32,000 nt of DNA from NCBI RefSeq assembly GCF_018336915.1, contig NZ_CP064923.1:3180001-3212000 (forward strand). The letters run 5' to 3'. Below are positions 4,418-32,000 of the stretch, piece by piece. Below the pieces are notes generated by a model, which saw only the letters and a list, made by a program, of their open reading frames with translations, was not told the origin of the DNA and ran no database searches. The position numbers and the translations under genes were made by a program. This DNA is from Acaryochloris marina S15. GTDB taxonomy: Bacteria; Cyanobacteriota; Cyanobacteriia; Thermosynechococcales; Thermosynechococcaceae. Numbering within the stretch: the stretch's first letter is position 1; each line of letters begins with the position of its first letter.

Positions 4418-5632
4418 TCATGTAAGTGCTCTAGAGTATACTTCTGCATATCTATCAGCAGCTTTATCGTAACTATGAAATCGTTCAATCCTATCTTTTG
4501 CAGCAATACCAATTTTTGCCCTTTTTGATGGAGATTCAATTAACTCAACTATTTTTTTAACAAGCTGATTAATGTTACCTTTTTCATAAGAAATTCCCGA
4601 CTCTCCATCAATAAACCACTCACTTGTTCCACCTGAATTAGAAGCTACGACAGGAGCACCGTTTAACATTGCTTCAGCCACTACATTGGGAAAATTATCA
4701 GGGTATATTGATGGAACAACTACCACACAGTCAGAGGCAAATCTATTAAAAATATCTTCTCTCTTCTGCCAGCCTAAAAGTTGAATATTTTTCAACAGAG
4801 CTTGTTCAACACTCTCCTCAAACTGGTGTTTAAAGTCACCGTCACCAATAATTTTTAGTCTTAAAGATGGGTAATACTTGACAATTTCTCGATAGGCTTC
4901 AATTAAGTCAAAAATTCCTTTTTGCTTAGAAATTCGTCCAACAAAAACTAGATCTGGTATGCCTGACTTTGTTTGGATCGGTGTTGTTAAAATACTTTTC
5001 TGTGGTGAAGGAACCTTAAGTATCTTACTACGTAATACTCCATGATTTAAAAGAAGATTTAGCATATAGTCCGAGTAAACAATTAAGTTAAAATACTTTT
5101 TGATAAATTTATTCTGTTCATAATAAACATTTAAATAAGCTGAGACTATATTTTCAGGCTTGCGTGAACGTTGACATTTTTCAGTATATGCATTTATTAA
5201 ACATAAGGGGCCAAAATTTTTACTACATGGTTTACAACTTCTTTCTAAAAACCGTGACCACCCAGGACAAGTTATCATTGGTTCATGTAGAGATCTAAAG
5301 ACTGGGAGTCCGAATTCAAAAAGTAGGTTAGTTACCTGTGGGAAAGGCATCGAATGAATATGTATGATATTTATACAATATTCTTTTATATAGGTTTCGA
5401 TTAAACATTTTAGTGATGAGATTGAAGAAGCCTTAATAATTCTGTTGACATCAGTAGAGAAATAACAAAGATTGTATGCACCCATTTCTTTACTAATTAG
5501 CATTAAATGCTTTTCAGTTTTAAAGCGTTCGTACATAGCTGTCATTATCTTAAGAATATGATTTTCAGCCCCACCTCTTAAATCAAGGTTGTAGTGAATC
5601 CGGAGAACTTTAATCTCTACATCAAAATACAT
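4418..5632 (-). CDS. Glycosyltransferase family 4 (GT-B) with a Cys-rich insert in the N-domain
   Basis: 404 aa. FVGRISKQKGIFDLIEA and VPSIYPDNFPNVVAEAMLNGAPVVASNSGG. Cys cluster CPGWSRFLERSCKPCSKNFGPLC. ATG at 5632. Very AT-rich gene. Confidence 0.8.
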   Translation of the reverse strand: MYFDVEIKVLRIHYNLDLRGGAENHILKIMTAMYERFKTEKHLMLISKEMGAYNLCYFSTDVNRIIKASSISSLKCLIETYIKEYCINIIHIHSMPFPQVTNLLFEFGLPVFRSLHEPMITCPGWSRFLERSCKPCSKNFGPLCLINAYTEKCQRSRKPENIVSAYLNVYYEQNKFIKKYFNLIVYSDYMLNLLLNHGVLRSKILKVPSPQKSILTTPIQTKSGIPDLVFVGRISKQKGIFDLIEAYREIVKYYPSLRLKIIGDGDFKHQFEESVEQALLKNIQLLGWQKREDIFNRFASDCVVVVPSIYPDNFPNVVAEAMLNGAPVVASNSGGTSEWFIDGESGISYEKGNINQLVKKIVELIESPSKRAKIGIAAKDRIERFHSYDKAADRYAEVYSRALT

Positions 5633-8529: not shown

Positions 8530-9744
8530 CTAAATGAGTGCGTTCTCAATAAGAAATTCTGAAAAGCTATTTACAAGTAGCTTAATATCATAGTTTGAGA
8601 CTACATGTTTTCTAGCTGAAATTGAAATTTCTTTTCTAAGATCTTCATTACTTATAACTAGATCTAAATAATCACTAATTTCTTTGATCGCATTATCTCT
8701 ATTATCGGCATCTACAAGAATACCACACTTGCTGTTTTTAACAGACTCTACTGCCCCTCCGTGGTTTCCAGCTATAATTACATTCTCAAAGAAAGATGCT
8801 TCTATAAAACTTATACCAAAACCTTCAAAGTCTTTGTTTAAATTAGAATGATTCGGCATAATAAAAACTGAGCTTAATTCTAGCAAATTAAATTTAGCTT
8901 CGTCTGAAATTTTCCCTAAAAACCGTACTTTTTCATTCAATTCTAATTCATTAACAATTTTTTTGAGATAATCGTATTCCTGGCCCGTTCCTGCAATTAA
9001 ATAAATATAATCATCATTTTCTCTTAATGTTCGTTTTAAAGCTTGTATAGCAATATCTATACCTTTTCTTTTTGTGAGTCTTGAGATTGTAGTAATTAAA
9101 AATTTATTAGTTAGATCTATTTCTAAATCCTTAGATTTTTTTTTCTTTTTGCCTTCTAGGAATTCTATATCAAGGCCTGGATAGAGGATGTAGTCTTTGC
9201 AACTATATTGAATTGAATTATCTTTAAGTAGTTTTTTTGTAGCATGAGAGTTGAATATAATTAGATTTGAGCTTTTGCAGACAAAATCCAAAAAATTTTT
9301 ATTGCTCTTGATCAGATTCAAAATATCGTAACCATGCAAAACTATTGCATACTTTAATTTTAGAAAATGTAGTATCTGGATAACAAGTATAGAATATGTA
9401 TTGCTTATATAAGTGATAATAAATAGATCTTTTGGATTTTTAAGTGATATTTTTAGGATCTCAAAAATAACAAAAAATGCAATATTAATATAGTAAATTG
9501 CAGAGTTTATTTTCTTGAATAAATAAAATGAATCTCCTATTCTTTTTCCAAGAAATCTATCATTTTTGTATTTATTTAAACCTTTCAGGGTAAAAACAGG
9601 AGTTTCTATTTGAAGTACACTTGTAATTACTGTATTTAGTAAATCTAACTTGTTTAACTCTTTTGCAAGTTGGTAGGTATATTCAGCAACCCCACCCAAC
9701 ATAGGCTTATAGTCCGGTGAGAAAATTACAATTTTATTACTCAT
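8530..9744 (-). CDS. Glycosyltransferase family 4 (GT-B)
   Basis: 404 aa. IVIFSPDYKPMLGGVAEYTYQLAKEL, ISRLTKRKGIDIAIQAL and FEGFGISFIEASFFENVIIAGNHGG. Extremely AT-rich (23% GC on line 9361). Confidence 0.8.
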   Translation of the reverse strand: MSNKIVIFSPDYKPMLGGVAEYTYQLAKELNKLDLLNTVITSVLQIETPVFTLKGLNKYKNDRFLGKRIGDSFYLFKKINSAIYYINIAFFVIFEILKISLKNPKDLFIITYISNTYSILVIQILHFLKLKYAIVLHGYDILNLIKSNKNFLDFVCKSSNLIIFNSHATKKLLKDNSIQYSCKDYILYPGLDIEFLEGKKKKKSKDLEIDLTNKFLITTISRLTKRKGIDIAIQALKRTLRENDDYIYLIAGTGQEYDYLKKIVNELELNEKVRFLGKISDEAKFNLLELSSVFIMPNHSNLNKDFEGFGISFIEASFFENVIIAGNHGGAVESVKNSKCGILVDADNRDNAIKEISDYLDLVISNEDLRKEISISARKHVVSNYDIKLLVNSFSEFLIENALI

Positions 9745-19474: not shown

Positions 19475-20773
19475 CTAGGCAGAAGAGATATCCCAAGAAT
19501 ATGGCTGATAAAAAGCAGCGCCACTCAGATTGAAAAACGTATCTACGCTAAAATCATATGCTTCTACGAAATCTAAAGTGTTTAGAGCTCCTTGGCGAAC
19601 GACAAGCTTCATCATATAGTTACCAGGTTTGAAGCAGACCTGCGGAAAAATAACAGCTATTTTGTTCATCCCCTTACTCAATTTGATTTCTTTACCATCA
19701 TTTTGGTTGCTAATAAACAAAACTGAGTTTCCAGCGCTTAATTTCTCATAAAAATTAAGCCTCAAATTAATGTTGCTTAAATCAGTTTTCGCGTTACATA
19801 GAATAGATATTCTTGCAGATTCGCCACAATACAAAGTCTCAGAAGAATCATTTCCTTCAGATTTTATTTCAATAGATTCAATGGATAAGGTTGAAGATTT
19901 TTTCAGAAAATCTTCAACCTTATTTGTATTGTGTACAATCCTTCTATCTCCATGCTGCTGAGAATCCATGAAGATAAGATCTCTCTCATACTGAAGCACA
20001 ATTTCTCTAGCTTCTCCAACGTTTAGAAGCTTACCCCGATTTAAGTAAGCCACTTGTTCACAAACTCCCGCAATTGTTTGAGAGTTGTGACTGACCAAAA
20101 TAAATACGGTATCACTGTTTCTTAATTCTCCCAGTTTTTTATGACATTTAGCTTGGAAGCAAATATCACCTACCGCAAGAACCTCATCGACAAGAAGAAT
20201 TTCTGGCTCGGTAAAAATTGCACTGGCAAAGCCTAAACGTGCAGCCATCCCAGAACTATAACTCTGGACAGGCGCATCAATTGCATCCCCAATCTCCGCA
20301 AACGCCACTACCTCCTCAAACCGTTCATCGATCTCCTGTTTCGACAAGCCCAAAATTGCCATATTCACATAAATATTTTCCCGCCCCGTCAAAATTGGGT
20401 TAAACCCCGCCCCCAAGGCAATCAACGGCGCCACCCGTCCATTCACCTCCACCGAACCATGATCTGGCCGGATCAACCCACTAATAATCCGCAACAGCGT
20501 CGTCTTCCCTGCACCATTGGCACCCACCAGCCCCAGCGCTTCCCCCCGCTTTAGCTCAAAGCTCACATTGTTTAACGCCCAAAACTCCCCCTTACGCAGC
20601 TCTACATCTTGCCGCTGTGCGCCAAACACCTCTCCAGCAATATCCTGCACCCCATATAGCAAAGACCGCTTTAAATCACGGCAAAACCGTTTAGAAACAT
20701 TCTTCACGGACAAAACAACGCTGCCATCCTTAGACGACTGATGCATAATAGGCTCTAGATAGGTTTGTGTCAT
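19475..20773 (-). CDS. wzt: Polysaccharide ABC exporter ATP-binding protein (Wzt/KpsT type) with an extra C-terminal domain of about 170 aa
   Basis: Walker A GLVGANGAGKTTLL, signature YSSGMAARLGFA, Walker B ILLVDEVLAVGD. Residues about 265-433 extend beyond the NBD (…IESIEIKSEGNDSSETLYCGESARISILCNA…GNYMMKLVVRQG…), like the carbohydrate-binding Wzt C-domain. The start is either ATG 20773 or the adjacent GTG 20776. Confidence 0.85.
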   Translation of the reverse strand: MTQTYLEPIMHQSSKDGSVVLSVKNVSKRFCRDLKRSLLYGVQDIAGEVFGAQRQDVELRKGEFWALNNVSFELKRGEALGLVGANGAGKTTLLRIISGLIRPDHGSVEVNGRVAPLIALGAGFNPILTGRENIYVNMAILGLSKQEIDERFEEVVAFAEIGDAIDAPVQSYSSGMAARLGFASAIFTEPEILLVDEVLAVGDICFQAKCHKKLGELRNSDTVFILVSHNSQTIAGVCEQVAYLNRGKLLNVGEAREIVLQYERDLIFMDSQQHGDRRIVHNTNKVEDFLKKSSTLSIESIEIKSEGNDSSETLYCGESARISILCNAKTDLSNINLRLNFYEKLSAGNSVLFISNQNDGKEIKLSKGMNKIAVIFPQVCFKPGNYMMKLVVRQGALNTLDFVEAYDFSVDTFFNLSGAAFYQPYSWDISSA

Positions 20774-20792
20774 CACTTAAATAGGGTGAAAG

Positions 20793-21004
20793 GTTACTAC
20801 TCAGGCACTACATTTAGACTCTTGGTTTCTTAAAACACTACATATGGTGTTTGCCATTAATCTCCAAACGTCAAAATAATAAGCAATTCTCAACAAGGAG
20901 CCGCATTGCCCATTTTATTGAGAATTGAATTTCAAACAAAAATTGAGTGTAAATCTTTCTCACAGGTAGTTCTGGAGATTTTAGGGGGCAGCCTGAGTAG
21001 TTAC
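20793..21004. mobile_element. 212-bp MITE-like insertion between wzm and wzt (14-bp TIRs with 1 mismatch, 8-bp target-site duplication)
   Basis: Direct repeats GGTGAAAG lie at 20785-20792 and 21005-21012, immediately outside GTTACTACTCAGGC (20793-20806) and GCCTGAGTAGTTAC (20991-21004; rc GTAACTACTCAGGC, 13/14 match). There is an internal 10-bp inverted repeat caattctcaa/ttgagaattg. Removing the element plus one repeat copy shrinks the 243-nt wzm-wzt spacer to 23 nt. Confidence 0.75.
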
Positions 21005-21019
21005 GGTGAAAGTTTGAAT

Positions 21020-21880
21020 TTACGAGCTCATCCGCTCCACCATAAATGGCATTGCCAGGCGATACAGCATCCAGCCCAGCAGGAACAGCCCTAAGGCCAG
21101 TCCACTGGCCCACCAAAAGCCTATAACATCCGTCAATACTCCGGTTGTCGCTAGTTCCCGTGTTGTTACCAGCAATGGTGTTACCGGATTTAGCCGCACA
21201 ATGCTCCCAAATAAACCACTTTGCGGCACTTCGTAAATCACTGGTGTCAGCAGCAGCCAAGGTGCCACAATCATCGGTAATACCTTCTGCACATCTCCAT
21301 ACAGCGCCCCCAGTGGCGCTAACACCAAGCCAATCCCTGTCCCCAGCATCACCAGATGCACCAGCGCTACTGGCACCAACAGCACCGCCCAAGTCACTGG
21401 CATCTGAAACCAAACAAATAGACCCACAATCAAAATCAGCTTGATACCAAAGTTAAACGCCACCTCCCCCAGTTTCGCCAGCACCAATGCCTCACGCGGG
21501 AAATTGATTTTCGCCAACATCGCCTTTGCTGCATTGACTGCCATAATTGGCCCATTCAGCGCCTCTACAAAGGTCTGCCAAAGGGCCATACTGAACATGA
21601 CATAGGCCGGGTAGGGCAACTCCGTTTCACCCAGGTTCACTACCCCCGTATTGCGAGCCATAACCAATCCAAACGCTGTCACCACTGGCGGCATAAAAGC
21701 CCAGAAAATTCCCAGTAAAGACTGCCGATATTGAGCGCTGATATCCCGCACCAACAATCGCCAAGCCAGTTCCCGAGAAGCCAGCAAGTCACGGCCCATT
21801 TCCTGCAACATTTGCAGCGGGTGACGAATGCGGCTTTCAGGTGTGTAGATCACTCGCTTAGGAGCATGATATTGATTCAT
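21020..21880 (-). CDS. wzm: Polysaccharide ABC exporter permease (ABC-2 type, Wzm/KpsM)
   Basis: 286 aa. LAWRLLVRDISAQYRQSLLGIFWAFMPPVV is the ABC-2 N-terminal motif, followed by about 6 hydrophobic segments. It sits next to the wzt-type ATPase. GC-rich (about 60% on sampled lines). Confidence 0.85.
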   Translation of the reverse strand: MNQYHAPKRVIYTPESRIRHPLQMLQEMGRDLLASRELAWRLLVRDISAQYRQSLLGIFWAFMPPVVTAFGLVMARNTGVVNLGETELPYPAYVMFSMALWQTFVEALNGPIMAVNAAKAMLAKINFPREALVLAKLGEVAFNFGIKLILIVGLFVWFQMPVTWAVLLVPVALVHLVMLGTGIGLVLAPLGALYGDVQKVLPMIVAPWLLLTPVIYEVPQSGLFGSIVRLNPVTPLLVTTRELATTGVLTDVIGFWWASGLALGLFLLGWMLYRLAMPFMVERMSS

Positions 21881-22045: not shown

Positions 22046-23428
22046 CTAAGACTCTGTTTCAGGGGCAGGATGAGAGTCAGTGTTCAGGATTTGTCGATTC
22101 AGTTTCTGTTTACGCAGTTCTCGGTTGCGTAAAGATTGATCCACAACTTTGAGGTATTTCTTGGCAATAATTTGGGGTGTAAAATGCTCTTCCAAATAAC
22201 GATGGGCATTTTCACCCATCGCTTGGGCCGCTTTATGATCCTTCTGTAAATACAACAGAAAATCTGCTAACTCCTTGCCATCTCCATTCTCAATCGTTAT
22301 CCCACAATTGGCATCGGCAATTAAATCATTCAGATAGGAACTCTTAGGACATACGGCCACAATAGGACGTCCTGATGATAACGCAGAATATACTTTACTG
22401 GGTGCAACTAAATCCTGCATTCCTGGACTTACGCTGACTAAAGAAATATTTCCTGCCGTCAAAGAATAGGGCAACACCTCCTTATCCTGATAGGGTAAGA
22501 ACTGGCAATTTTTCAAACCACGGTCTTGTACCTCAGCCATCACATCAGATCGTTTTGCTCCACCCCCAATAAACACAAATTGAATCGGCTCATCCTTTAA
22601 CAAGATCATGGCTTCCAACAATGTGTCCATATCGTGGCAGCGGCCCATATTACCGGAGTAAATGACCGTAAAAATATCTACTAGGTGATATTTCCAGGCA
22701 AACCAATTTTTAGTTTTTGGAATAGGCACAATCTGTTTGGGATCTGCCCAACTATGAATCACTGAAATTTTCCCCCGCACTCTTGGACATTGCCGAATCA
22801 CCCGTCGCTTCATCGCCCCACTCAAAACGATGATCCCACTGGCATTTTTCCAAACGTAATAGTTCACCAATCGCCAAGCTTTCGCTAAAACATGATTGTG
22901 GTTAACAACATTAAGCTCAACTGCTATATCGGGATAGAGATCGTAGACCAAACAAATATAGGATTTGCCTAAGATCAAAGAAGCCAAGTATCCCAATACA
23001 GGCAAAAAAGGTGGAGCCGTTGTCAGCAAAATCACATCATACTTTCGTGCAGACCGGAGCAGATGTAACCCCGCCCGCAAAAAAAACAAAAGACCATTAA
23101 TAGCTTTACCCCGAATTTGTTTCGGCCAAAGTTGGGCGGTCCTAGAACGCTTCACCCGAACCTGATGCCGATCTTCTTTTAGAGGAGATTCTCGTTGGAC
23201 TGTAAAGGCGTATCCTGGCTGACCACTAAATACACTGACCTGTATATCTTGTTGGGATAACTGTTGGGTGATCTCATCAATCAGTTGTCCAGTCGGGGCA
23301 TAATCCGGGGGAAAGAATTGCGTAAACACCCCTAGATGTGTGTCTTTAGTAACTAGTCCCAATGTCTCAGTAGTATTGCCTTCAAGATCAAACTGCACAT
23401 CTGTTGATAAGAAATAGTTACGTGTCAT
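22046..23428 (-). CDS. Glycosyltransferase family 4, WcaI-like
   Basis: GVFTQFFPPDYAPTGQLIDEITQQL, VIYSGNMGRCHDMDTLLEA and VSPGMQDLVAPSKVYSALSSGRPIVAV. The track start at 23440 is a TTG. The first ATG is at 23428 (MTRNYFL...), and I cannot decide between them. Confidence 0.8.
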   Translation of the reverse strand: MTRNYFLSTDVQFDLEGNTTETLGLVTKDTHLGVFTQFFPPDYAPTGQLIDEITQQLSQQDIQVSVFSGQPGYAFTVQRESPLKEDRHQVRVKRSRTAQLWPKQIRGKAINGLLFFLRAGLHLLRSARKYDVILLTTAPPFLPVLGYLASLILGKSYICLVYDLYPDIAVELNVVNHNHVLAKAWRLVNYYVWKNASGIIVLSGAMKRRVIRQCPRVRGKISVIHSWADPKQIVPIPKTKNWFAWKYHLVDIFTVIYSGNMGRCHDMDTLLEAMILLKDEPIQFVFIGGGAKRSDVMAEVQDRGLKNCQFLPYQDKEVLPYSLTAGNISLVSVSPGMQDLVAPSKVYSALSSGRPIVAVCPKSSYLNDLIADANCGITIENGDGKELADFLLYLQKDHKAAQAMGENAHRYLEEHFTPQIIAKKYLKVVDQSLRNRELRKQKLNRQILNTDSHPAPETES

Positions 23429-23505
23429 AGGGGCAAACAAGTAGGAGAGTAAGCAAACCGATGTGGTTCAGTAACATTGGGGAAAATGAAGATGTTCGAA
23501 TCTAA

Positions 23506-23529: not shown

Positions 23530-23872
23530 GTTTATAGGTGATGGTAATAAAAAATTTTCAGCAGGCGATCAAAGTCTAACTATCAATCTTTTAGTGGGTT
23601 ACAGCATTTGCTACATAGCGCTCTGCTTTGTAAGTTTCTGGCCATCCCACATCATTGTGTAGATCGGTGCGGTTATCCTGCGAAGTTGGATCGGAATGGC
23701 CGAAAAACATAAATGGAGGGTCATCCCTTCGAAGGCCGCAGCAATAACTCCTCCTAAGCGCAAGATTGTCCCCTGCTGTCCTCAACTCTTGGCGCGAGTG
23801 CAATCAATCCAGACTTCTAACTCTCAACCAAGTTCAGTGGGTTTAAAATGGAACTGTGGGGGGTTTAGTAAT

Positions 23873-25379
23873 CTGACTTTTCCTGCTAAGTCTTCCAGTG
23901 CTTAGTGGGTGGTATTTGTAGCCCTTAGTCTCAGCCTTGGTTAAAGTAAGTGCAGTGATACCCAGAGAGCATCTAATGAGTCCAGAGCGTTATGAGCAAA
24001 ATTTTGGAACCTGTGAGTTGGGTGATCAACGATTGAATCACCGTGCATTCAGTATCGGTCGTTCTCTGAGCGAGAAATTTGGTCAAGCCCTATCGACCGT
24101 ATTTGAGACTGGGAAAGCCCTCAAACGGTCTTACGAGTTTTCGCAAATGTGAAAACCAGCTTCGCTAAGATTATTTCTCCTCATTGTTCTATGACCGCTT
24201 GTAGCGTATCGTCGCAAGAGATGACCTTGAGTGTTGGCGACACCACCTTCCTCGACTATGAAGGTATCAAGCAGAAGCGCCAAGGCTATGGTCCCCAAGG
24301 CAGAGGGGGGAATGGATTATTACTCCATAGTGCCTTAGCCGTTGACCCTGAGCAGGGCCAACCCTTGGGTTTGTTATGGCAAAAAGTGTGGAATCGTCAG
24401 CATCGTCCCAAGCCCCCGAAGAATGAAACGTCCCGACAAAAGAAGAAACGTCAGACCAAAGCGCGTAAAACTGCTCGGGAGCGTCTATTTGAGGAAAAAG
24501 AATCCTATCGTTGGGTGGAAGCACTGCACGCAGTGGAGAAAGCTGTGGGTCCTTCAACTCGTATCATTCATGTCTTTGACCGAGAAGGAGACATTGCTGA
24601 AGTCTTTGAACGACTCAATACCCTAGACAATACGGGACTCGTGGTTAGAGCCTCTCATAATCGTTGTCTAGAACACGATCCTAATCGCCTGTGGGAAAAG
24701 CTGGAAGCCCAGAGTGTTCAGTTCGAGTATGAGATTGACTTACCTAAAACGAAAGGCCGGAGTGCGCGCACGGCTAAGTTAGCTGTGAGATGTTGTCTTG
24801 TTGAACTTCAAAGACCAGCCCGACTAGCTGCCAGTCAACCCCTTCAGGTTTACGCTGTCTATGCAACAGAAGTAGCCCCACCTGAAGGGGAAGAACCAGT
24901 GTCATGGATGTTGCTCACTAGTGAAGTCGTGACAACAGTAGAAATGGCCCAAACCATTTTGCGTTGGTACACCTACCGTTGGCGAGTTGAGGAGTATCAC
25001 AAAGTTCTAAAATCGGGCACTCAGGTGGAGCGATATCGGTTGGCATCTGAGGGAATGAAAACCTTATTGGGATTCCTGTGTGTCACTGCTGTAGAGCTGT
25101 TGCGTGTGACTTATTTAGAACGAACACAACCTCAATTACCTGCACAAGATGTCCTCACGCCTTTACAGATCAAAGTTCTCATTGCCAAGACCCCGAAGGT
25201 ACCTAAAACATTAACGGTGGCATGGGCTGTTCAAGCAGTTGCACGACTCGGGGGATATCTGGAGCATCGTCGAAACACACCGATTGGAATTCAAGTCCTG
25301 TGGAAAGGGTGGGCGAAGCTCAATGACCTGATTGAAGGCTGGCTGTTAGCTACCCAGGAGACTTAGCAGGAAAAGTCAG
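23873..25379 (+). mobile_element. IS4-family (IS50/Tn5-like) insertion sequence, 1507 bp, with 20-bp perfect IRs and a 9-10 bp target-site duplication
   Basis: IR-L is CTGACTTTTCCTGCTAAGTC (23873-23892). IR-R is GACTTAGCAGGAAAAGTCAG (25360-25379), its exact reverse complement. Flanking direct repeat GTTTAGTAAT lies at 23863-23872 and 25380-25389. The IR begins CTGACT, as does the Tn5 outside end. Confidence 0.92.
23976..25366 (+). pseudogene. Tn5-like DDE transposase interrupted by a -1 frameshift near codon 58-60
   Basis: ORF 23937-24152 (…FGTCELGDQRLNHRAFSIGRSL…KRSYEFSQM*) matches the Tn5 Tnp N-terminal DNA-binding region (ALGDPRRTARL…GAYRF). ORF 24149-25366 carries the catalytic core: VGDTTFLDY, HVFDREGDIAEVF, YTYRWRVEEYHKVLKSGTQVE and ARLGGYLEHRR…LWKGW. 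The two frames join if the run GAGTTTTCG (24135-24143) had one more T (…YEFFANVKTSF…). The total would be about 476 aa, the size of Tn5 Tnp. Confidence 0.85.
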
Positions 25380-25535
25380 GTTTAGTAATGATTACACCTA
25401 ATCAAATAAAAAAATAGAGATCATTGGTCAAACACAGAGGCTCTTAGAGATACAAGGACTTAATGATTGATCCAGATTTTTCCCAGGGGATAAAAATTAC
25501 ATCCCCAATATTACCTTTAACAAAGAGCGGATCTT

Positions 25536-26033
25536 CTAAGATTCATCACCTTCACCAGAATCAGAGCCTGATTCGGTATCTGCCCCAGAGTTAGATTCTT
25601 GTTCAGATTCTGAACTACTGATAGAGTCAAATACTTTTTCGGCGTCAGTTACATCTACACCGCTTGTTTCTCCTATGTCCGTTACCTTAGTCCCCATTTC
25701 CTTAGCATCAGCTGTTGTGCAACCAGACCCACCACAACTATTTTCTATATCGCTGAGCATGCTCTCAACATCAGCAGCCTCCTTTGATTCTGATTCATCA
25801 TTATCCGCCCCAGTTTCACCACTAATATCTGAACCATCTCCTCCCGATATATCTGAACCATCTCCTCCCGATATATCTGAACCAATGCCACCACCAATAT
25901 CTGATCCGGTACCACCCGGAATTTCTGCATCTTGGCCATAGGCATTGGGGATAGGAGCTAATAAGAGCAACCCACCCAGAGCCAAGGTCAATCCAAAACC
26001 TTGAGTCCCATATTTGCTAGTGCTATTCTGCAT
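25536..26033 (-). CDS. Secreted, highly acidic Asp/Ser/Gly/Glu-rich repeat protein (unknown function)
   Basis: I prefer ATG 26033, which has AAGGAG 10 nt upstream and avoids overlap with the upstream gene. Signal-peptide-like MQNSTSKYGTQGFGLTLALGGLLLLAPIPNAYG, then GGTGSDIGGGIGSDISGGDGSDISGGDGSDISGETGADNDESE… ending …SGSDSGEGDES. It has only two Cys (SCGGSGC). Confidence 0.6.
   Translation of the reverse strand: MQNSTSKYGTQGFGLTLALGGLLLLAPIPNAYGQDAEIPGGTGSDIGGGIGSDISGGDGSDISGGDGSDISGETGADNDESESKEAADVESMLSDIENSCGGSGCTTADAKEMGTKVTDIGETSGVDVTDAEKVFDSISSSESEQESNSGADTESGSDSGEGDES
25825..25920. repeat. 24-bp tandem repeat (4 units, 2 of them perfect) inside the acidic-protein gene
   Basis: ATATCTGAACCATCTCCTCCCGAT occurs at 25825-25848 and 25849-25872, both exact. 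Degenerate units follow at 25873-25896 and 25897-25920. On the minus strand these encode the (G)GDGSDIS octapeptide repeats. Confidence 0.85.
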
Positions 26034-26067
26034 GATTTCATAACTCCTTCGTTCGTCAAACACCTTG

Positions 26068-27183
26068 TCAAAACTTCCAAGACATCCCCACACTGATAAT
26101 GAAACGAGGATTTTCTCCGGCCCCCAAAATATCCCGAATAGCAGGGGAAATCACTAGGGGAATCTTTCGGAATGGAGCAACCGATAGCCCCACAGCCAAA
26201 TCCTGTCCTGTCCATTCTACAATCGTGGACACTGGACGGGCGACCAGTATCGTTGCCGTTCCAAATGGACTCACGGTGGTGCGATCCGCAACAAAGTCAT
26301 CTTCCAATCGAAATCGACCAGTCCCTACACCAGCCGTCAGGGCTAGGCGACTAAACGGTTGATTCACATCTTGACGGAGGTTAATGATTTTTGACACGGA
26401 TCCATAGAAGGTATCTTCAAAATCATTATCATCTCCTAAATTGATCAATCCTTCTGCCCCCACTGCGACGGCCCATCGGCCTGGGAACTGGCGATGAATC
26501 TTGGCATTAAATCCCCCCGTACCAAAACTGCGACCAATCTGGCCAAAACTGGCTAAACTATAGGAGATTTGCACCCCAATATTTTTTCTAGCGTCTCCAA
26601 AGCCAATGCCAAATCCAGCTGTAGCATCACTGTCCGGTGCACGCCGGACCCGTTCTTGAAAGTTAAAATTGGCAAAGGCTGTAAAATTGTCCGCTCCAAA
26701 CCCAGCCGGGTTAGAAATCGTAATAGCTGGAGAACTCCGCCCCCGACGGCTTTGTTTTTTAATTTCTTTCTGGATGTTTTCCAGACTTTCTTTAATTCGC
26801 TTGATCTCGTCTTCTGTTAGGGGTCGGTCCTGGGGGGCAGAGTTAGGAGCATCTCCCTCCGATTCCAGTGTGTCTCCCTCTGGAGTATTAAAGTCGGTCC
26901 CCAAATTGTCAGCCTGAGCCTGCAACTCGGATACATCAAGATTCTGATCTAATACTGTCTCAAGTAATACTGTTTGATTTTTAACTCCCTCCTGGGAAAG
27001 AGGCTGTTCCAATAAAGACTGGGGTAAAGGGAGTGTCGATTGAGGGGAACTTAAGGGTGACTCATGGGCCACCTCAATGGAAATAGGCGTTTCTGCTGCA
27101 ACGAGTCGAGGAAGACAGAGTATCGCCATTGCACTAGACAAGTACAAGGGACCCAACGTTCTCAACAAAGGATATGTATTCAA
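26068..27183 (-). CDS. Putative outer-membrane beta-barrel protein with N-terminal signal peptide, P/Q/S/E-rich linker and a charged helix
   Basis: 371 aa. Begins MNTYPLLRTLGPLYLSSAMAILCLPRLVAA/ETP, followed by a low-complexity linker and the helix LTEDEIKRIKESLENIQKEIKKQSRRGR. The C-terminal ~225 aa are rich in Gly and aromatics with alternating hydrophobicity, ending …RFIISVGMSWKF; a terminal Phe is typical of the OMP beta-signal. The track start is a TTG (GAGGA about 10 nt upstream), so the start is uncertain. Confidence 0.5.
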   Translation of the reverse strand: MNTYPLLRTLGPLYLSSAMAILCLPRLVAAETPISIEVAHESPLSSPQSTLPLPQSLLEQPLSQEGVKNQTVLLETVLDQNLDVSELQAQADNLGTDFNTPEGDTLESEGDAPNSAPQDRPLTEDEIKRIKESLENIQKEIKKQSRRGRSSPAITISNPAGFGADNFTAFANFNFQERVRRAPDSDATAGFGIGFGDARKNIGVQISYSLASFGQIGRSFGTGGFNAKIHRQFPGRWAVAVGAEGLINLGDDNDFEDTFYGSVSKIINLRQDVNQPFSRLALTAGVGTGRFRLEDDFVADRTTVSPFGTATILVARPVSTIVEWTGQDLAVGLSVAPFRKIPLVISPAIRDILGAGENPRFIISVGMSWKF

Positions 27184-27421: not shown

Positions 27422-29632
27422 CTAACGGAGAAATAAATCTTTGGGTGAAGGAAGTGAGCGCTGGGTCCCAGAACCACTCTTTGACTTAGAATCACCATAA
27501 TAGTTATGGGAATAGTAGTAGTAGTAGGAATAACTTTCATTTTTGGTGACAATACCATTAATGAATAATCCCAACACAGCCGTTCCTGACTGCTCTAAAA
27601 GCTCTTTCGCGCGTTTGGCGCTCGATTTTTCTAAATATTCGGGTCGACCTACCAGTATTAACCCATCGGTTTCTTGAGCCATAATCAAAGCATCCGCCGC
27701 TGCCATCAAAGGTGGAGCATCAATTAACACAAAATCATAGCGATCGGCCTGCTGGGCCACAAAGGTATGAAATGGGTTAGAGTCAATCAATGCTTGGGGA
27801 TTAGGGGGTAAAGATCCAGAGGTTAACAGATCTAAATTGGGTTGCACCGAATGAGTTATGGGTGTCCCCCTATCAGAGTCTTCTGTCGCAGCTAACACAT
27901 TGGATAAACCTGTTTGATTACTCACTTCCCAAATCAGGTGTTGGGTCGGTTTGCGTAAATCTGCATCTATTAGTAATACCCGATAGTTCATTTGGGAGAG
28001 GACAACGGCCAAGTTAGCACTGGTCCAGGATTTTCCTTCCTGGGGTAAGGCGCTACTAAATGTCAACACTCGTACGGGTGCTTCCGTGCTGAGAAAGCGT
28101 AAGTTTGCTCTCAGCATCCGATAGGATTCAGAGATTGGTGATCTGGGATTTATGATGGTTGGCAGGGCCACCTGGTCTTCAGATTCCGATGTATGGATTG
28201 GCACACTGCCCAAAACTGGCCAAGACGGGTAAGTCTCACGAATATCGTCTACCGTTTTTAGCTTCGAATCAATCTTTTCCAGAAAATAGGCCAATCCAGC
28301 GGCCAGTAATGCTCCGGCGATGACCCCTCTCAGGATCTCTGCAAACTGATTAGGTGCCACTGGTGTTGAGGGTAACTCAGCTAACTCAACAATTTTGGCA
28401 GTGGGAATGGTTTGATTCTCCGTTAATTGGGCATTCTGTAAGCTTTGAAGTAGCGCTTTATAAGTAGTTTCAGCAACACCCAATTCCCGTTGAAGCTGCC
28501 GAAGTTTTTGTGATAGGGTGGGGAGCTGTTGGGAGCGACTCCCATAAATATTCAACTGAGCTTCCAATACTTTCTGTTGTTTTAAGAGGCCTTGCCGAAC
28601 AACATTTAGCTGCACCAACTGGTTTAATAACTTTTGGCGTGTAGAGTCTACAGGTTGTTGATTAACCTTTGAACTTTCACCAATTGAAGTTTGAATTGTA
28701 TCTTGCAATATTGATTGAAGACGCTTTTGTTGGTCTTCTAAGTCTAAAATTGTGGGGTGATCCGGAGTTAAATTGGTTCTTGCTAAAGCAAGGTTTTGAC
28801 TCACTTCTTGTAAACTATCACGTACTTTTTGAATGGCAGGTAATTGGCTAGCAGTACTAATGTCAAAGGCGGAATCTATGGTCACTCCCAACTGACCCCG
28901 AATGCTCAATGATTCAGCCTCAATCTTGGCAAGTTCAGTTGCAACCTGATCTATTTGGTTTTGAATGTTAATTTGCGCTGAAGTAACAACGTTGGCCAGA
29001 CTTTCCACATCACTAATTTGATTCGCTTCCATAAATCGTCTTAAGGATTGGTCTGCGACGAGAACGTTTTGCTTGATCTGAGGAAGCTGCTTAGCAATGA
29101 ACTGCCGTGCTACTGATGCTTGTGAGCGATTTTCCTGCAAATTGTAATTGACATAGACTTCCATCAACTGGTTAACAGTAGCAGAAGCGATACGGGGGGC
29201 GACACTTTCAAACTTTACATTGACAACATCTGTACCTTCTTGCGGGGTTATGGTCAATGAGGCTTTCAGGGTAGAAACTTTTAATGAAGTATCTGAGTTA
29301 TTGTTTTTGAGAAAATCCTGTAAGGAAACCAAGGTCTTTTCCAAAAGAGGATGAGATTTCATGATGGCGATCTCAGTGGAAATTCCTTGATCTGAATTAG
29401 AATTAGCTTCTATACCTTTAATACTAACGAGTTGTGACGTTTTATTCGGAACATTGAGACGTAATTGCCCTACCGCCTGATAAATGGGTGTTTTAGATAA
29501 AGTGTTGAAGGTATTTAAGACACAAACTCCAGTAAAAAAGCATAGAGCAGGTTTCCATCGTCGTTTAAAAATGGACCAATAATCTACAGAAGTATTTGTT
29601 TCGATTGGGGTAGGCAGCGGATTGGTAACCAT
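27422..29632 (-). CDS. wzc: Polysaccharide co-polymerase / BY-tyrosine kinase (Wzc, GumC/EpsG-like, PCP-2a)
   Basis: 736 aa. N-terminal Wzz-type segment (YWSIFKRRWKPALCFFTGVCVL…IYQAVGQLRL), a long coiled periplasmic region and a second TM (VIAGALLAAGLAYFL). Kinase motifs are Walker A SSALPQEGKSWTSANLA, A' LLIDADLRKP and B DFVLIDAPP, plus a C-terminal Tyr cluster ESYSYYYYYSHNYYGD. Confidence 0.9.
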   Translation of the reverse strand: MVTNPLPTPIETNTSVDYWSIFKRRWKPALCFFTGVCVLNTFNTLSKTPIYQAVGQLRLNVPNKTSQLVSIKGIEANSNSDQGISTEIAIMKSHPLLEKTLVSLQDFLKNNNSDTSLKVSTLKASLTITPQEGTDVVNVKFESVAPRIASATVNQLMEVYVNYNLQENRSQASVARQFIAKQLPQIKQNVLVADQSLRRFMEANQISDVESLANVVTSAQINIQNQIDQVATELAKIEAESLSIRGQLGVTIDSAFDISTASQLPAIQKVRDSLQEVSQNLALARTNLTPDHPTILDLEDQQKRLQSILQDTIQTSIGESSKVNQQPVDSTRQKLLNQLVQLNVVRQGLLKQQKVLEAQLNIYGSRSQQLPTLSQKLRQLQRELGVAETTYKALLQSLQNAQLTENQTIPTAKIVELAELPSTPVAPNQFAEILRGVIAGALLAAGLAYFLEKIDSKLKTVDDIRETYPSWPVLGSVPIHTSESEDQVALPTIINPRSPISESYRMLRANLRFLSTEAPVRVLTFSSALPQEGKSWTSANLAVVLSQMNYRVLLIDADLRKPTQHLIWEVSNQTGLSNVLAATEDSDRGTPITHSVQPNLDLLTSGSLPPNPQALIDSNPFHTFVAQQADRYDFVLIDAPPLMAAADALIMAQETDGLILVGRPEYLEKSSAKRAKELLEQSGTAVLGLFINGIVTKNESYSYYYYYSHNYYGDSKSKSGSGTQRSLPSPKDLFLR

Positions 29633-29730: not shown

Positions 29731-30153
29731 TTACTTCATATACCGGAATTGCTTGATTTGGTGGCCTGCCATGCGAGCCTGTTTTTTGGTAAATTCGCCA
29801 ACAGAAGGGTTGCCTCTCGGATCAGTCACTCCAATGGCTCGTTGCCAGAGTTCAGGGGGAGCGACTGAAACTTGATAGGTCTGGTCGGTTTTACGAATGT
29901 GATACCACTGCACGTTTTGGCATTCTTCACACCAGAATGCTTCCAACCAGTGTTCCCTCAAGATCACTTCAGATCGACTCGCCAATATCCTCCGAGAAGC
30001 GGATTTACCCAGGCCATGCTGCTGTAGCTGAGAAGTTTGGTTGGAGTAAAGGGAATGTTTTTGGCTGACACTATCTAAATAACAGTTATGAATAGGGCAA
30101 TAAATTGCTCTGCGTTTGGAGCGTTTCCGATTGCGATCGCACCTTCTCCCCAA
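29731..30153 (-). CDS. Small basic Cys-rich protein (possible zinc-ribbon), unknown function; first gene of the wzc transcription unit
   Basis: 140 aa. TTG start at 30153 with a strong AAGGAGG 6 nt upstream, and an in-frame stop at 30181-30183 upstream. N-terminus GRRCDRNRKRSKRR. Cys pattern is C19-P-I-H-N-C24 … C75-E-E-C78. No family recognised. Confidence 0.55.
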   Translation of the reverse strand: MGRRCDRNRKRSKRRAIYCPIHNCYLDSVSQKHSLYSNQTSQLQQHGLGKSASRRILASRSEVILREHWLEAFWCEECQNVQWYHIRKTDQTYQVSVAPPELWQRAIGVTDPRGNPSVGEFTKKQARMAGHQIKQFRYMK

Positions 30154-31382
30154 ATTCGGCCTCCTTTGCGCGTAAATACATCATTTGCGGCATCGCAAGG
30201 TTCGTGTTTTGAGGCTGAGATCAGTCTGACCATCGAAGCCCCAGAAACAAGTAATTTCATATTATTCAGTTCAGTCTAATTAAGTGCTAACTAGAAGGCA
30301 GCCTCTTTCAGATCGAGGGAACTTCCAGTAGAGCGAAGCGAGAGGAATGTGACCAATCTCAAGCTAAAGTATATTGCCAAAATCTGGCAAAAAAAGACAG
30401 ATAAACTCTATTTGATTACACGTGTCAGACATATTTCCCCCTATGAATCGTCAAGCCGACAGATGTGAATAATTAATTGAGATAGTTCCCTATGGACTTA
30501 GAACATTATCATGCTTATCAAAACTAAATATTCATCTTAAGCATCAGAAAAAACTAATTTTAATGATTTTCATCTATCTAATTAATTATTGCCGTTGAAA
30601 GCATAGCATGCATTTTTTATTTTGTTAACCAATAGAAGTCATATTAAGTCATATCTACAATGAAATTTAAAGTAATAGTCAAAAAATCCTCCAAACTAGC
30701 TTTTTAGCAGAAATTCGGCGAATTTATTCTATCTAAGGCACTCAAATATGACATATACAACTATTCTGACAGATCTATTATTACAATAATTGTGATTTGT
30801 GATACAAGTCAATATTCCTTAGAAATAGAATAAAAACTTGTCTCGTTCTTATTCTAAATATTTCTCCAATGCAGACTTAAAATCGTAGCTTCATAGATTT
30901 ATATTTTCTGTAAAACAAGATTTCAAGGATGTTTAGAGACTATATTTTTAAACTCATTGTCCTGAATCTAAGGGGAAACACTAGCATTAACCCTTAAAAA
31001 AATATATCCAGGCAACAAAGTATCAAAAATATTCTATAGGAAGATAATATTGAGCACCCTGTTTGTTAATCAACTAATCATTGAATAACTCATTTATACA
31101 AATAGATTATCTTCAATACCAATAATCTTTTTCTCAAATATGTCACCTCCTTTTTTTCATCGAACATACCCATAACTCAATGCAGTTGAGAATTATGGAA
31201 AACTCTGGCATGACAACCAAGGTTTATACATTCTGAGTCCCTGAGTTATACTCGTTACTCAAGGTAAATTCACCATATTGCGAAAGAAAACAGAGTCCCT
31301 ACCTTGTTAGGTTGACGGCTGGACGGGATATCGATCTCTCCTGTAAGGGAACTATGAAGTTAGTGAATGGAGATTATTAACC

Positions 31383-32000
31383 ATGCGAGTTCTGGTTACA
31401 GGTGCAGCTGGTTTTATTGGTTACCACTTATCTCAACGCCTTTTGCTAGACGGAGCACAGGTATTGGGAATCGACAATCTCAATGACTACTATGCAGTCG
31501 ATCTCAAAACGTCACGACTCGCTCAATTGGAATCCAATCCTAATTTCCAGTTCCAACGCCTAGATCTCAGCGATCGCAACGGTATGGAAACACTTTTTGA
31601 GAGCAATACGTTTGATGGTGTGATTCATTTAGCTGCTCAGGCTGGAGTTCGCTATTCTCTGGAAAACCCCCATGCTTATTTAGACAGTAACCTGGTGGGC
31701 TTCCTACATATTCTTGAAGGCTGTCGCCACAGCAAAATAGCCCATCTGGTTTACGCTTCTTCTAGCTCTGTGTACGGTGCCAATAAGAAAGTCCCCTTTT
31801 CCGTAGAAGACAATGTGGACCATCCCGTCTCTTTATATGCCGCCACCAAGAAATCCAATGAGTTAATGGCCCATTCCTATAGCCATTTATATCAAATACC
31901 GATTACCGGACTACGATTCTTTACGGTATATGGCCCCTGGGGACGACCCGATATGGCTTACTTCAAGTTTGTAGATGCGATCTCAAATAACAAATCCATC
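31383..32000 (+). CDS. NAD-dependent epimerase, UDP-glucuronate 4-epimerase-like extended SDR (5' part; continues past the window end)
   Basis: Not in the track because it is open at the window edge. ATG at 31383 gives [21 protein letters not shown] (GxxGxxG), [25 protein letters not shown] (YxxxK) and [17 protein letters not shown]. 206 codons without a stop. Confidence 0.85.

Follow-up and report, generated by a model that had tools for sequence, protein, structure and literature searches.

BB–c1(–c2) is a conserved, unnamed cassette of cyanobacterial genes that is linked to polysaccharide export loci, and the gene pair described here is its Acaryochloris version. The pair lies in a 32,000-nucleotide (nt) stretch of the Acaryochloris marina S15 genome (contig NZ_CP064923.1, positions 3,180,001 to 3,212,000; hereafter, the window, whose own numbering is used throughout). 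On its minus strand the window carries, in order, orf140, wzc, an open reading frame (ORF) of 371 amino acids (aa) designated BB, a 34-nt gap and a 165-aa ORF designated c1-like; an IS4-family insertion sequence on the plus strand follows, and then a GT4 glycosyltransferase gene, wzm and wzt. An initial annotation, made from the letters alone, had placed the two ORFs, the gap, the acidic character of the smaller product and the upstream wzc correctly. It had also suggested that the two proteins form an alternative export or anchoring module in place of an outer-membrane polysaccharide export (OPX) protein. That the two genes belong together is borne out, as they are a true conserved pair linked to export genes; the premise that the absence of an adjacent OPX implies a replacement exporter is not supported. 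The other idea of that annotation, a cation-binding matrix component delivered with the polymer, is speculative.

BB (26068–27183, minus strand) is predicted to be an outer-membrane protein in which a signal peptide, a disordered linker and a coiled-coil-type helix precede a 12-stranded beta-barrel. Translation from a TTG start gives 371 aa, the length also returned by an independent gene caller, and the window BB is 100% identical to A. marina S15 I1H34_14905. The GenBank protein has 353 aa; use of the TTG start adds the n-region of the signal peptide (27130–27183), which is conserved in P0003 and P0004, and the deposited start is probably too short. The signal peptide read from the sequence (aa 1–30, 27094–27183, minus strand), whose N-terminus these two proteins keep, ends between …PRLVAA and ETP and is plausibly of the Sec type. 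Residues 31–120 form a linker with 42% Pro, Gln, Ser and Glu.

In an AlphaFold2 model built on a 120-sequence alignment, BB is disordered to approximately residue 114, forms a helix at residues 124–146 (26746–26814, minus strand; one ten-residue block at a pLDDT of 92) and then 12 beta strands spanning residues 168–370. The barrel domain (aa ~160–371, 26071–26706, minus strand) ends in …MSWKF, and its pLDDT per ten-residue block is mostly 85–96, with one block at 67. Its strands alternate between hydrophobic, lipid-facing residues and Gly, Ser, Thr and invariant charged residues that face the lumen. The 12-strand model, this alternation and the terminal Phe together support the assignment of BB as an integral outer-membrane beta-barrel, which agrees with the barrel fold first suspected for it. 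In the sequence of the helix, Ile and Leu occupy the heptad a/d positions (I127, I130, L134, I137 and I141), with a weaker L…L pattern across the family, and a coiled-coil oligomer is therefore reasonable to infer. Conservation within the barrel is higher on the lumen-facing side (0.85) than on the lipid-facing side (0.68), and the invariant lumen-facing residues comprise D186, N226, K228, H230, R279, E323, D328, R350 and R360. The outer loops are short (3–17 residues), and L2, L5 and L6 are 81–95% conserved. The conserved lumen and these three loops point to a conserved partner or substrate. A segment before the barrel, SPAxTIxxPxGxGAD, is also conserved in the family.

The BB family is large. 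One search returned 556 relatives at E up to 1e-3, and a second returned 882 representative clusters at 50% identity, with 291 below 1e-30; the named matches of both searches are all cyanobacterial, and the cassette appears to be restricted to this phylum. The window BB is 38–72% identical to 32 relatives, with approximately 54 invariant columns. The conserved part consists of the short helix and the C-terminal 225 residues, whereas the N-terminal region varies in length; the window protein has the C-terminal domain of ~225 aa, the invariant residues and the aromatic end that define the family. A few members carry SLH domains at the N-terminus, which would therefore be periplasmic, and SLH is the only significant Pfam match, in 2 relatives of 33. 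Neither as a single sequence nor as a family profile does BB match Pfam, NCBIfam or PDB sequences, and neither BB nor the 165-aa protein has a Pfam match at E up to 1. OPX proteins are marked by Poly_export (PF02563) plus SLBB domains, and true ones in related loci score E ~1e-20. Likewise, the 33 BB relatives show no match to OprB or general porins, KdgM, the autotransporter beta-domain or Wzi in Pfam at E up to 1, and typical c1, c2 and BB members match nothing in NCBIfam. The earlier statement that neither protein can be assigned to a family is thus borne out, and a match of BB to a known porin, which would have spoken against its proposed role, was not found. Members of BB, c1 and c2 are labelled "hypothetical" or "uncharacterized" throughout, the one exception being a BB relative with an automatic domain label in UniRef. 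Some genomes have the system in duplicate, with two BB cassettes or two BB genes a few kb apart (L013, L014, L030 and L043).

The most constant feature of BB loci is the gene that comes next. A scan of one genome per species yielded 254 BB relatives, from which the best 80 loci were kept, their ORFs called and the products clustered. Among the 78 BB genes with at least 700 bp of downstream sequence, 74 are followed directly, on the same strand, by a gene that matches the hidden Markov model (HMM) of cluster c1, at a median gap of 29 nt; in the window the gap is 34 nt. The other four BB genes also precede genes for small proteins on their own strand; three of these proteins fall into a single cluster, of which the member examined combines a signal peptide with Gly/Ser-rich repeats and ends in W. 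A second product, c2, comes next after c1 in 48 of 68 cases. Orthologues of BB (64–94% identity) and of the small protein are found in the same order in four other Acaryochloris-type contigs, and both window ORFs are read as real genes because this order is kept and because a second gene caller agrees on BB. The order orf140–wzc–BB–c1 is likewise preserved in the Acaryochloris-type contigs, although Acaryochloris sp. 'Moss Beach' (L082) is without orf140 and has GT4 directly after c1. Two short-read assemblies (L081 and L083) break inside the small repeat-protein gene, probably because of the repeats or, in S15, the adjacent insertion sequence, and such genes may be under-represented in draft genomes.

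Typical c1 proteins have ~140–180 aa, with a signal peptide and, from the mature N-terminus, 1–6 octapeptides of the form xNxSDxTG; the helical region that comes next contains conserved Cys and the motif PRRFAR, and the last residue is Trp. When a typical c1 was modelled with AlphaFold2, the N-terminal repeats came out disordered and a helical hairpin was confident; Foldseek returns only non-specific helical matches to this model (E above 1). The gene in the window (25536–26033, minus strand) encodes a secreted protein of 165 aa from ATG, or 185 aa if an upstream GTG is used, with a pI of ~4.05 and 56% Asp, Glu, Ser and Gly (64% without the signal peptide). Its signal peptide, read from the sequence, ends …NAYG before Q. 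Four G-x-G-S-D-I-x-G units of period 8 follow (aa 41–72, 25818–25913, minus strand; GSDI at residues 43, 51, 59 and 67), then a short Cys-containing segment and an acidic tail. A sequence search with this protein returns itself and two metagenomic relatives only, one of which (P0252) is encoded directly after a BB orthologue that is 70% identical to the window BB. Orthologues also follow BB immediately in L082, L083 and L084. These Acaryochloris-type proteins have in common the signal peptide, the GxGSDIxG repeats and Cys pairs, whereas their tails differ, with a run of (GTESES)n at the end of the 'Moss Beach' orthologue.

Several features lead us to regard the 165-aa protein as a c1 that has diverged and become acidic, with the likeness seen mainly in the repeats: its position 34 nt after BB on the same strand, its signal peptide, repeats that match those of c1 in period and register, the Cys segment, and an hhalign comparison of the Acaryochloris set with typical c1 that gives a probability of 85.8% (E 5e-6) over the repeats and the helix start. 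By hmmsearch with c1 the matches are weak, at 18 bits for P0252 and 6.9 bits for the window protein, which is without PRRFAR and the terminal W, has an acidic tail instead, and carries one Cys pair (C100 and C105). Amyloid subunits typically carry imperfect repeats, and c1 was considered as such a subunit; this was judged unlikely, as the repeats are few, each contains an Asp, and a folded hairpin accompanies them.

The c2 proteins are secreted, have ~220 aa and match DUF4114 weakly (E 6e-5 to 3e-4). DUF4114 is described in the literature as lectin-like, and as a module that binds Ca2+ and sugar (PMC9109919). The c2 HMM finds no match in a six-frame translation of the window, and c2 is likewise not present in L082, a relative free of the insertion sequence; the Acaryochloris cassette therefore consists of two genes. 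In the literature on FapF or DUF4114 in cyanobacteria, we found no description of a BB–c1(–c2) cassette.

Genes for polysaccharide export recur next to the cassette. Within 10 kb of BB, Wzc is encoded in 21 of the 80 loci, an OPX in 11 and Wzm or Wzt in 15; 34 of 80 loci have one or more of these, as do 18 of the 30 loci with at least 8 kb on both flanks. In 27 of 80 loci an export gene lies within four genes of BB. The arrangements differ from clade to clade. Eight Oscillatoriales loci have BB–c1–c2–wzc–epimerase on one strand, and in approximately eight other loci BB–c1–(c2) is followed by wzm and/or wzt. An OPX gene is divergent from BB, one or two genes away, in L014, L015, L022, L032 and L080, whereas wzc is upstream of BB on the same strand in L009 and in Acaryochloris; in Pleurocapsales, wzc, an HpsJ-like gene and cyanoexosortase A genes adjoin BB. 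Because BB stands beside export genes in such differing orders, a functional link is indicated rather than inherited synteny, and we conclude that BB–c1 is linked to polysaccharide export loci. The pair thus recurs with wzc elsewhere, as its proposed role requires. The initial annotation had, however, tied the pair to Wzc as a substitute for its usual partner, and the counts do not support this: the constant partner of BB is c1 (74/78), with Wzc nearby in only 21/80. As a separate observation, the BB cassette is next to cyanoexosortase A in six Pleurocapsales loci (L068, L070, L071, L072, L076 and L078), and those that reach far enough also contain a cyanoexosortase A-associated protein, the HpsJ-like protein and wzc. 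In Leptothoe-type loci, a PEP-CTERM protein is encoded near the cassette.

The layout of BB resembles that of FapF, the amyloid secretion channel of Pseudomonas (PDB 5O65, 5O67 and 5O68). FapF is also a 12-stranded outer-membrane barrel with an N-terminal periplasmic coiled-coil-type helix and a disordered linker, is encoded with small Sec-exported repeat proteins, and exports unfolded repeat proteins through its channel. In a Foldseek search of the PDB with the BB model, FapF chains come first (E 6.6e-5 to 1e-3), with an only moderate fit, and other small barrels follow. FapF-type channels have a trimeric coiled coil at the N-terminus and a plug helix inside the barrel; on the side of BB, helix 124–146 carries the Ile/Leu heptad pattern. 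A search of PDB sequences with the BB profile, at E up to 10, finds no FapF match. On the model, BB would share with FapF the order of its domains and the 12-stranded outer-membrane barrel, but it cannot be shown to belong to that family. The genetic settings also differ. Unlike Fap loci, the neighbours of BB are c1, c2, wzc, wzm/wzt and glycosyltransferase genes, with no FapA–E-like genes seen; unlike the cargo of FapF, c1 comprises short octapeptides and a helical hairpin; and unlike FapF, the BB cassette is linked to polysaccharide export genes and is apparently restricted to cyanobacteria.

A second likeness is to GfcD/YjbH, encoded in the group-4 capsule locus and the yjbEFGH operons of Escherichia coli. 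Here too, an operon for capsule or exopolysaccharide includes the gene of a FapF-like barrel, and the gfc operon also encodes GfcA, a small, low-complexity, Ser/Thr/Gly-rich secreted protein, and Etk, a Wzc homologue. Export of GfcA/YjbE through the GfcD/YjbH barrel has been suggested in the literature, which is the same idea as the one proposed below for c1 and BB. However, GfcD/YjbH contains two barrels (one FapF-like and one PgaA-like) and needs GfcB and GfcC, whereas BB is a single barrel without such partners, and the c1 sequence shows no relation to those of GfcA and YjbE. Kinship of BB to YjbH/GfcD was considered and not supported, with an hhalign probability of 0.3% in a comparison of low power that has only two sequences on the YjbH side; the Pfam family YjbH (PF06082) is touched by 1 of 33 BB members, at E 0.28. 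One short motif is similar in the two proteins: outer loop L6 of BB (residues 350–356) reads RDIxGAG, and RDIGGTG lies between two strands of the N-terminal FapF-like barrel of YjbH/GfcD (residues 128–134 of E. coli YjbH, L085). In the hhalign output RDIGGT is aligned with RDILGA of BB and nothing else is common, and the likeness may be due to chance or be a trace of distant kinship.

Our favoured reading, which we hold tentatively and at somewhat less than even odds, is that BB exports c1 or holds it at the surface, where it organises polysaccharide. In this mechanism BB, probably as an oligomer, would let the repeat end of c1, in unfolded form, enter or traverse its Gly-lined lumen, and c1, with c2 where present, would thereby be displayed at the cell surface or released to it. 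The surface c1 and c2 would tether or organise polysaccharide from the Wzc and Wzm/Wzt systems encoded nearby, and the polymer itself would be exported by an OPX whose gene lies elsewhere. A narrow barrel can accept segments such as disordered repeats, and the near-obligate pairing of BB with c1, the disorder at the c1 N-terminus, the conservation of the Gly-lined lumen and of the loops, and the FapF-like layout together fit a barrel that accepts its partner. From these features we infer the translocation or holding of c1 by BB, the action of the pair on the polymer, and the oligomeric state.

Several points weigh against this reading. Most c1 proteins have only 1–6 repeats and a probably disulfide-bonded hairpin, which when folded would be too big for a 12-strand pore, and the contact of c1 with the BB lumen is itself deduced. 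The likeness to FapF is one of fold only, with template-modelling (TM) scores of 0.43–0.48 normalised to FapF and 12–14% identity, and KdgM, an oligosaccharide porin, superposes better (TM 0.61 normalised to the target, root-mean-square deviation 4.5 Å). The homology of the window protein to c1 lies mainly in the repeats, in a protein that is without the motif and Trp of the typical C-terminal part. The DUF4114 match of c2 is below the Pfam cut-off, and c2 has no PDB sequence match. Finally, 46 of the 80 loci, many of them on short contigs, have no export gene within 10 kb.

In a different assignment BB is itself the polysaccharide conduit, the outer-membrane barrel that would serve Wzc and those OPX proteins without the membrane-spanning Wza_C helix, with c1 and c2 as periplasmic or surface accessories. 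BB-linked OPX proteins (L003:15930-17504, L015:5456-7723, L022:7511-9433, L080:7999-9564 and others) have Poly_export and SLBB domains, and none of the ten tested matches Wza_C, even at E up to 1. A conduit would also fit the five loci in which BB is one or two genes from an OPX, the occurrence of BB next to or near wzc in at least six different gene orders, and a lumen lined by Gly and Ser with conserved charged residues. KdgM and NanC, porins for acidic oligosaccharides, share with BB the 12 strands and short loops, and KdgM-type pores of this size pass linear acidic oligosaccharides; KdgM gives the best TM score for BB. However, KdgM and NanC are uptake porins without the N-terminal helix and linker and without a partner gene, and BB has no match to KdgM in Pfam. 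For most class-3 OPX proteins no barrel partner is known. There is precedent for a separate barrel in the class-3 OPX of Myxococcus: WzpX, WzpS and WzpB are, like BB, stand-alone outer-membrane barrels encoded beside OPX and polysaccharide co-polymerase (PCP) genes, with an OPX that is without Wza_C. These are 18-stranded, PgaA-like and found in myxobacteria only, whereas BB, with 12 strands, is constantly paired with a small protein. Known polysaccharide porins have 16–18 strands (for example PgaA and Wzp, and also AlgE and BcsC), compared with 12 in BB. The invariant partner of BB is c1, not an OPX or Wzc, and the cassette also heads ABC-transporter operons and often has no export gene nearby. 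Moreover, the BB-linked OPX proteins keep a hydrophobic C-terminal tail (…L.PFLQILPFxxLF), which may be a divergent membrane segment missed by Pfam; the OPX of L015 also carries an SLH domain. For the majority of bacterial OPX proteins without a membrane-spanning helix, no partner barrel is known (bioRxiv 10.1101/2022.02.11.480155). We consider a conduit role for BB unlikely.

The strongly conserved outer loops of BB could alternatively mark a plugged surface anchor of the Wzi type, which would bind and nucleate polymer without transporting anything, with c1 and c2 acting independently. Wzi, the lectin of group-1 capsules, is also an outer-membrane barrel, belongs to the wza–wzb–wzc locus and acts on attachment of the polymer rather than on its synthesis; BB stands at the head of export operons or inside them, as wzi does in group-1 capsule loci, and the segment SPAxTIxxPxGxGAD before the barrel could serve as a plug. 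Against this, loops of only 3–17 residues offer little surface for a lectin site, and Wzi has 18 strands, a helical plug and no partner protein, whereas BB has 12 strands and no match to Wzi in Pfam. An anchor of this kind would also leave the near-obligate pairing with c1 unexplained, and we regard it as improbable.

It is similarly improbable, in our estimate, that the cassette is unrelated to polysaccharide, with BB a specialised solute porin or envelope protein that has a periplasmic partner and lies near export genes through the clustering of envelope genes. The 46 loci without a nearby export gene are in keeping with such a function, as are the flanks of the Leptothoe group, identified by eye as the housekeeping genes gatA, ilvC and dinB, and the general and specific porins among the fold matches of BB. 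However, BB matches no porin family, and the association with export genes recurs across clades and orders, often as same-strand neighbours (BB–c1–c2–wzc, BB–c1–c2–wzm–wzt and wzc–BB–c1). By our own rough estimate, which is not a computed background and assumes a few wzc copies per multi-megabase genome, only a few per cent of random 20-kb stretches of cyanobacterial genomes would contain wzc, and the observed link of the pair to export genes is far commoner than this.

No Poly_export/SLBB protein was found among the scanned window ORFs of at least 120 aa (a set without the ORFs at 4418–5632 and 8530–9744 and the 185-aa form of the small ORF), nor any OPX in the next 6.5 kb upstream of wzc on a Logan contig, as the initial annotation had stated for the window and had asked of its flank. 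That BB and the acidic protein replace the OPX altogether in A. marina S15 is nonetheless very improbable, since BB co-occurs with an OPX in 11 loci, cyanobacterial exopolysaccharide genes are typically scattered, with numbers of Wzc, Wza and Wzm/Wzt that do not match (PMC4594306), and the three wza/kpsD genes of A. marina MBIC11017 lie elsewhere in its genome. The evidence says that the cassette accompanies the usual Wza-type exporter instead of replacing it, and a Poly_export/SLBB gene very likely lies elsewhere in the S15 genome.

The wzc gene (27422–29632, minus strand) encodes a 736-aa protein that reads as a typical Wzc, a PCP-2a polysaccharide co-polymerase with a bacterial tyrosine kinase (BY-kinase) domain: it has the GNVR motif, a C-terminal BY-kinase P-loop domain of the ParA type (ParA/AAA_31) and a C-terminal Tyr cluster (YSYYYYYSHNYY), and it matches the profiles TIGR01007 (E 3e-53) and Wzc NF008568 (E 1.7e-58). 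On the other side of the pair, profile matches identify a WcaI-like GT4 glycosyltransferase (22046–23440, minus strand), whose counterpart in L082 is directly 3′ of the small-protein gene, and a polysaccharide ABC exporter (19475–21880, minus strand) formed by wzm (21020–21880) and wzt (19475–20776), with matches to ABC2_membrane, ABC_tran and Wzt_C. Further downstream are genes for a methyltransferase/pyruvyl-transferase fusion, a cytidylyltransferase, NeuB, further glycosyltransferases and a Wzy_C-like protein. The cluster at 1–23440 thus mixes Wzc, of the Wzy-type pathway, with a Wzm/Wzt ABC exporter. Taken with Wzc, Wzm and Wzt, the genes for NeuB, the cytidylyltransferase, the fusion protein and the Wzy_C-like protein suggest a modified polymer that contains nonulosonic acid, with a mixed export logic.

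The IS4-family element (23870–25382, plus strand) lies between the c1-like gene and GT4 and encodes a DDE transposase (NF033590, E 7.8e-102). It has 24-nt inverted repeats at its ends and a 10-bp direct duplication, GTTTAGTAAT, on both sides, and it is missing from the equivalent site in 'Moss Beach'; it is a clean insertion into the c1–GT4 intergenic spacer. The possibility that it destroyed a c2 gene was rejected, as the 10-bp duplication is cleanly intergenic and the element-free L082 has GT4 right after the small protein. If the cluster is a single transcript, the element may separate GT4–wzm–wzt from wzc–BB–c1.

Upstream of wzc, orf140 (29731–30153, minus strand) encodes a small, basic, Cys-containing protein that is kept in L081, L083 and L084. 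Homologues with 54–57% identity lie near BB cassettes in three unrelated loci (L049:12248-12667, L053:12342-12452 and L080:723-1061), the match in L053 being a 37-aa fragment only. The protein has no family match and might be a regulator. A 1.2-kb AT-rich stretch (30200–31400; GC 28–36%, compared with ~45% elsewhere) with stops in all frames and many promoter-like sites separates orf140–wzc from a divergent NAD-dependent epimerase gene that runs off the end of the window. Neither this stretch nor the window as a whole has an Rfam match. The Logan contig, which carries the same wzc and reaches 6.5 kb further upstream, shows orf140, the AT-rich gap, the divergent epimerase, a response regulator and a PAS histidine kinase. 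Three 404-aa ORFs of the window were considered as repeat copies, an idea that was rejected, as the proteins are unrelated.

Little is understood of the way in which the exopolysaccharides of cyanobacteria pass the outer membrane and remain attached to it. It is possible, if doubtful, that BB–c1(–c2) is an unrecognised cyanobacterial outer-membrane system that supplies the missing surface step in the assembly of exopolysaccharide, capsule or sheath. Such a system could take either of two forms: a disordered repeat protein might leave through a small barrel and then prime, carry or anchor the polymer, by analogy with the proposal for GfcA and GfcD, or BB might be the barrel partner that lets OPX proteins without Wza_C cross the outer membrane. 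The finding also bears on annotation, as BB, c1 and c2 members currently carry labels of the "hypothetical protein" type. A large family without curated annotation (882 clusters at 50% identity) thus comprises a predicted barrel together with a small secreted protein as its obligate partner and recurs in many lineages next to genes for Wzc, OPX and Wzm/Wzt, and BB, c1 and c2 provide three specific genes to knock out and localise.

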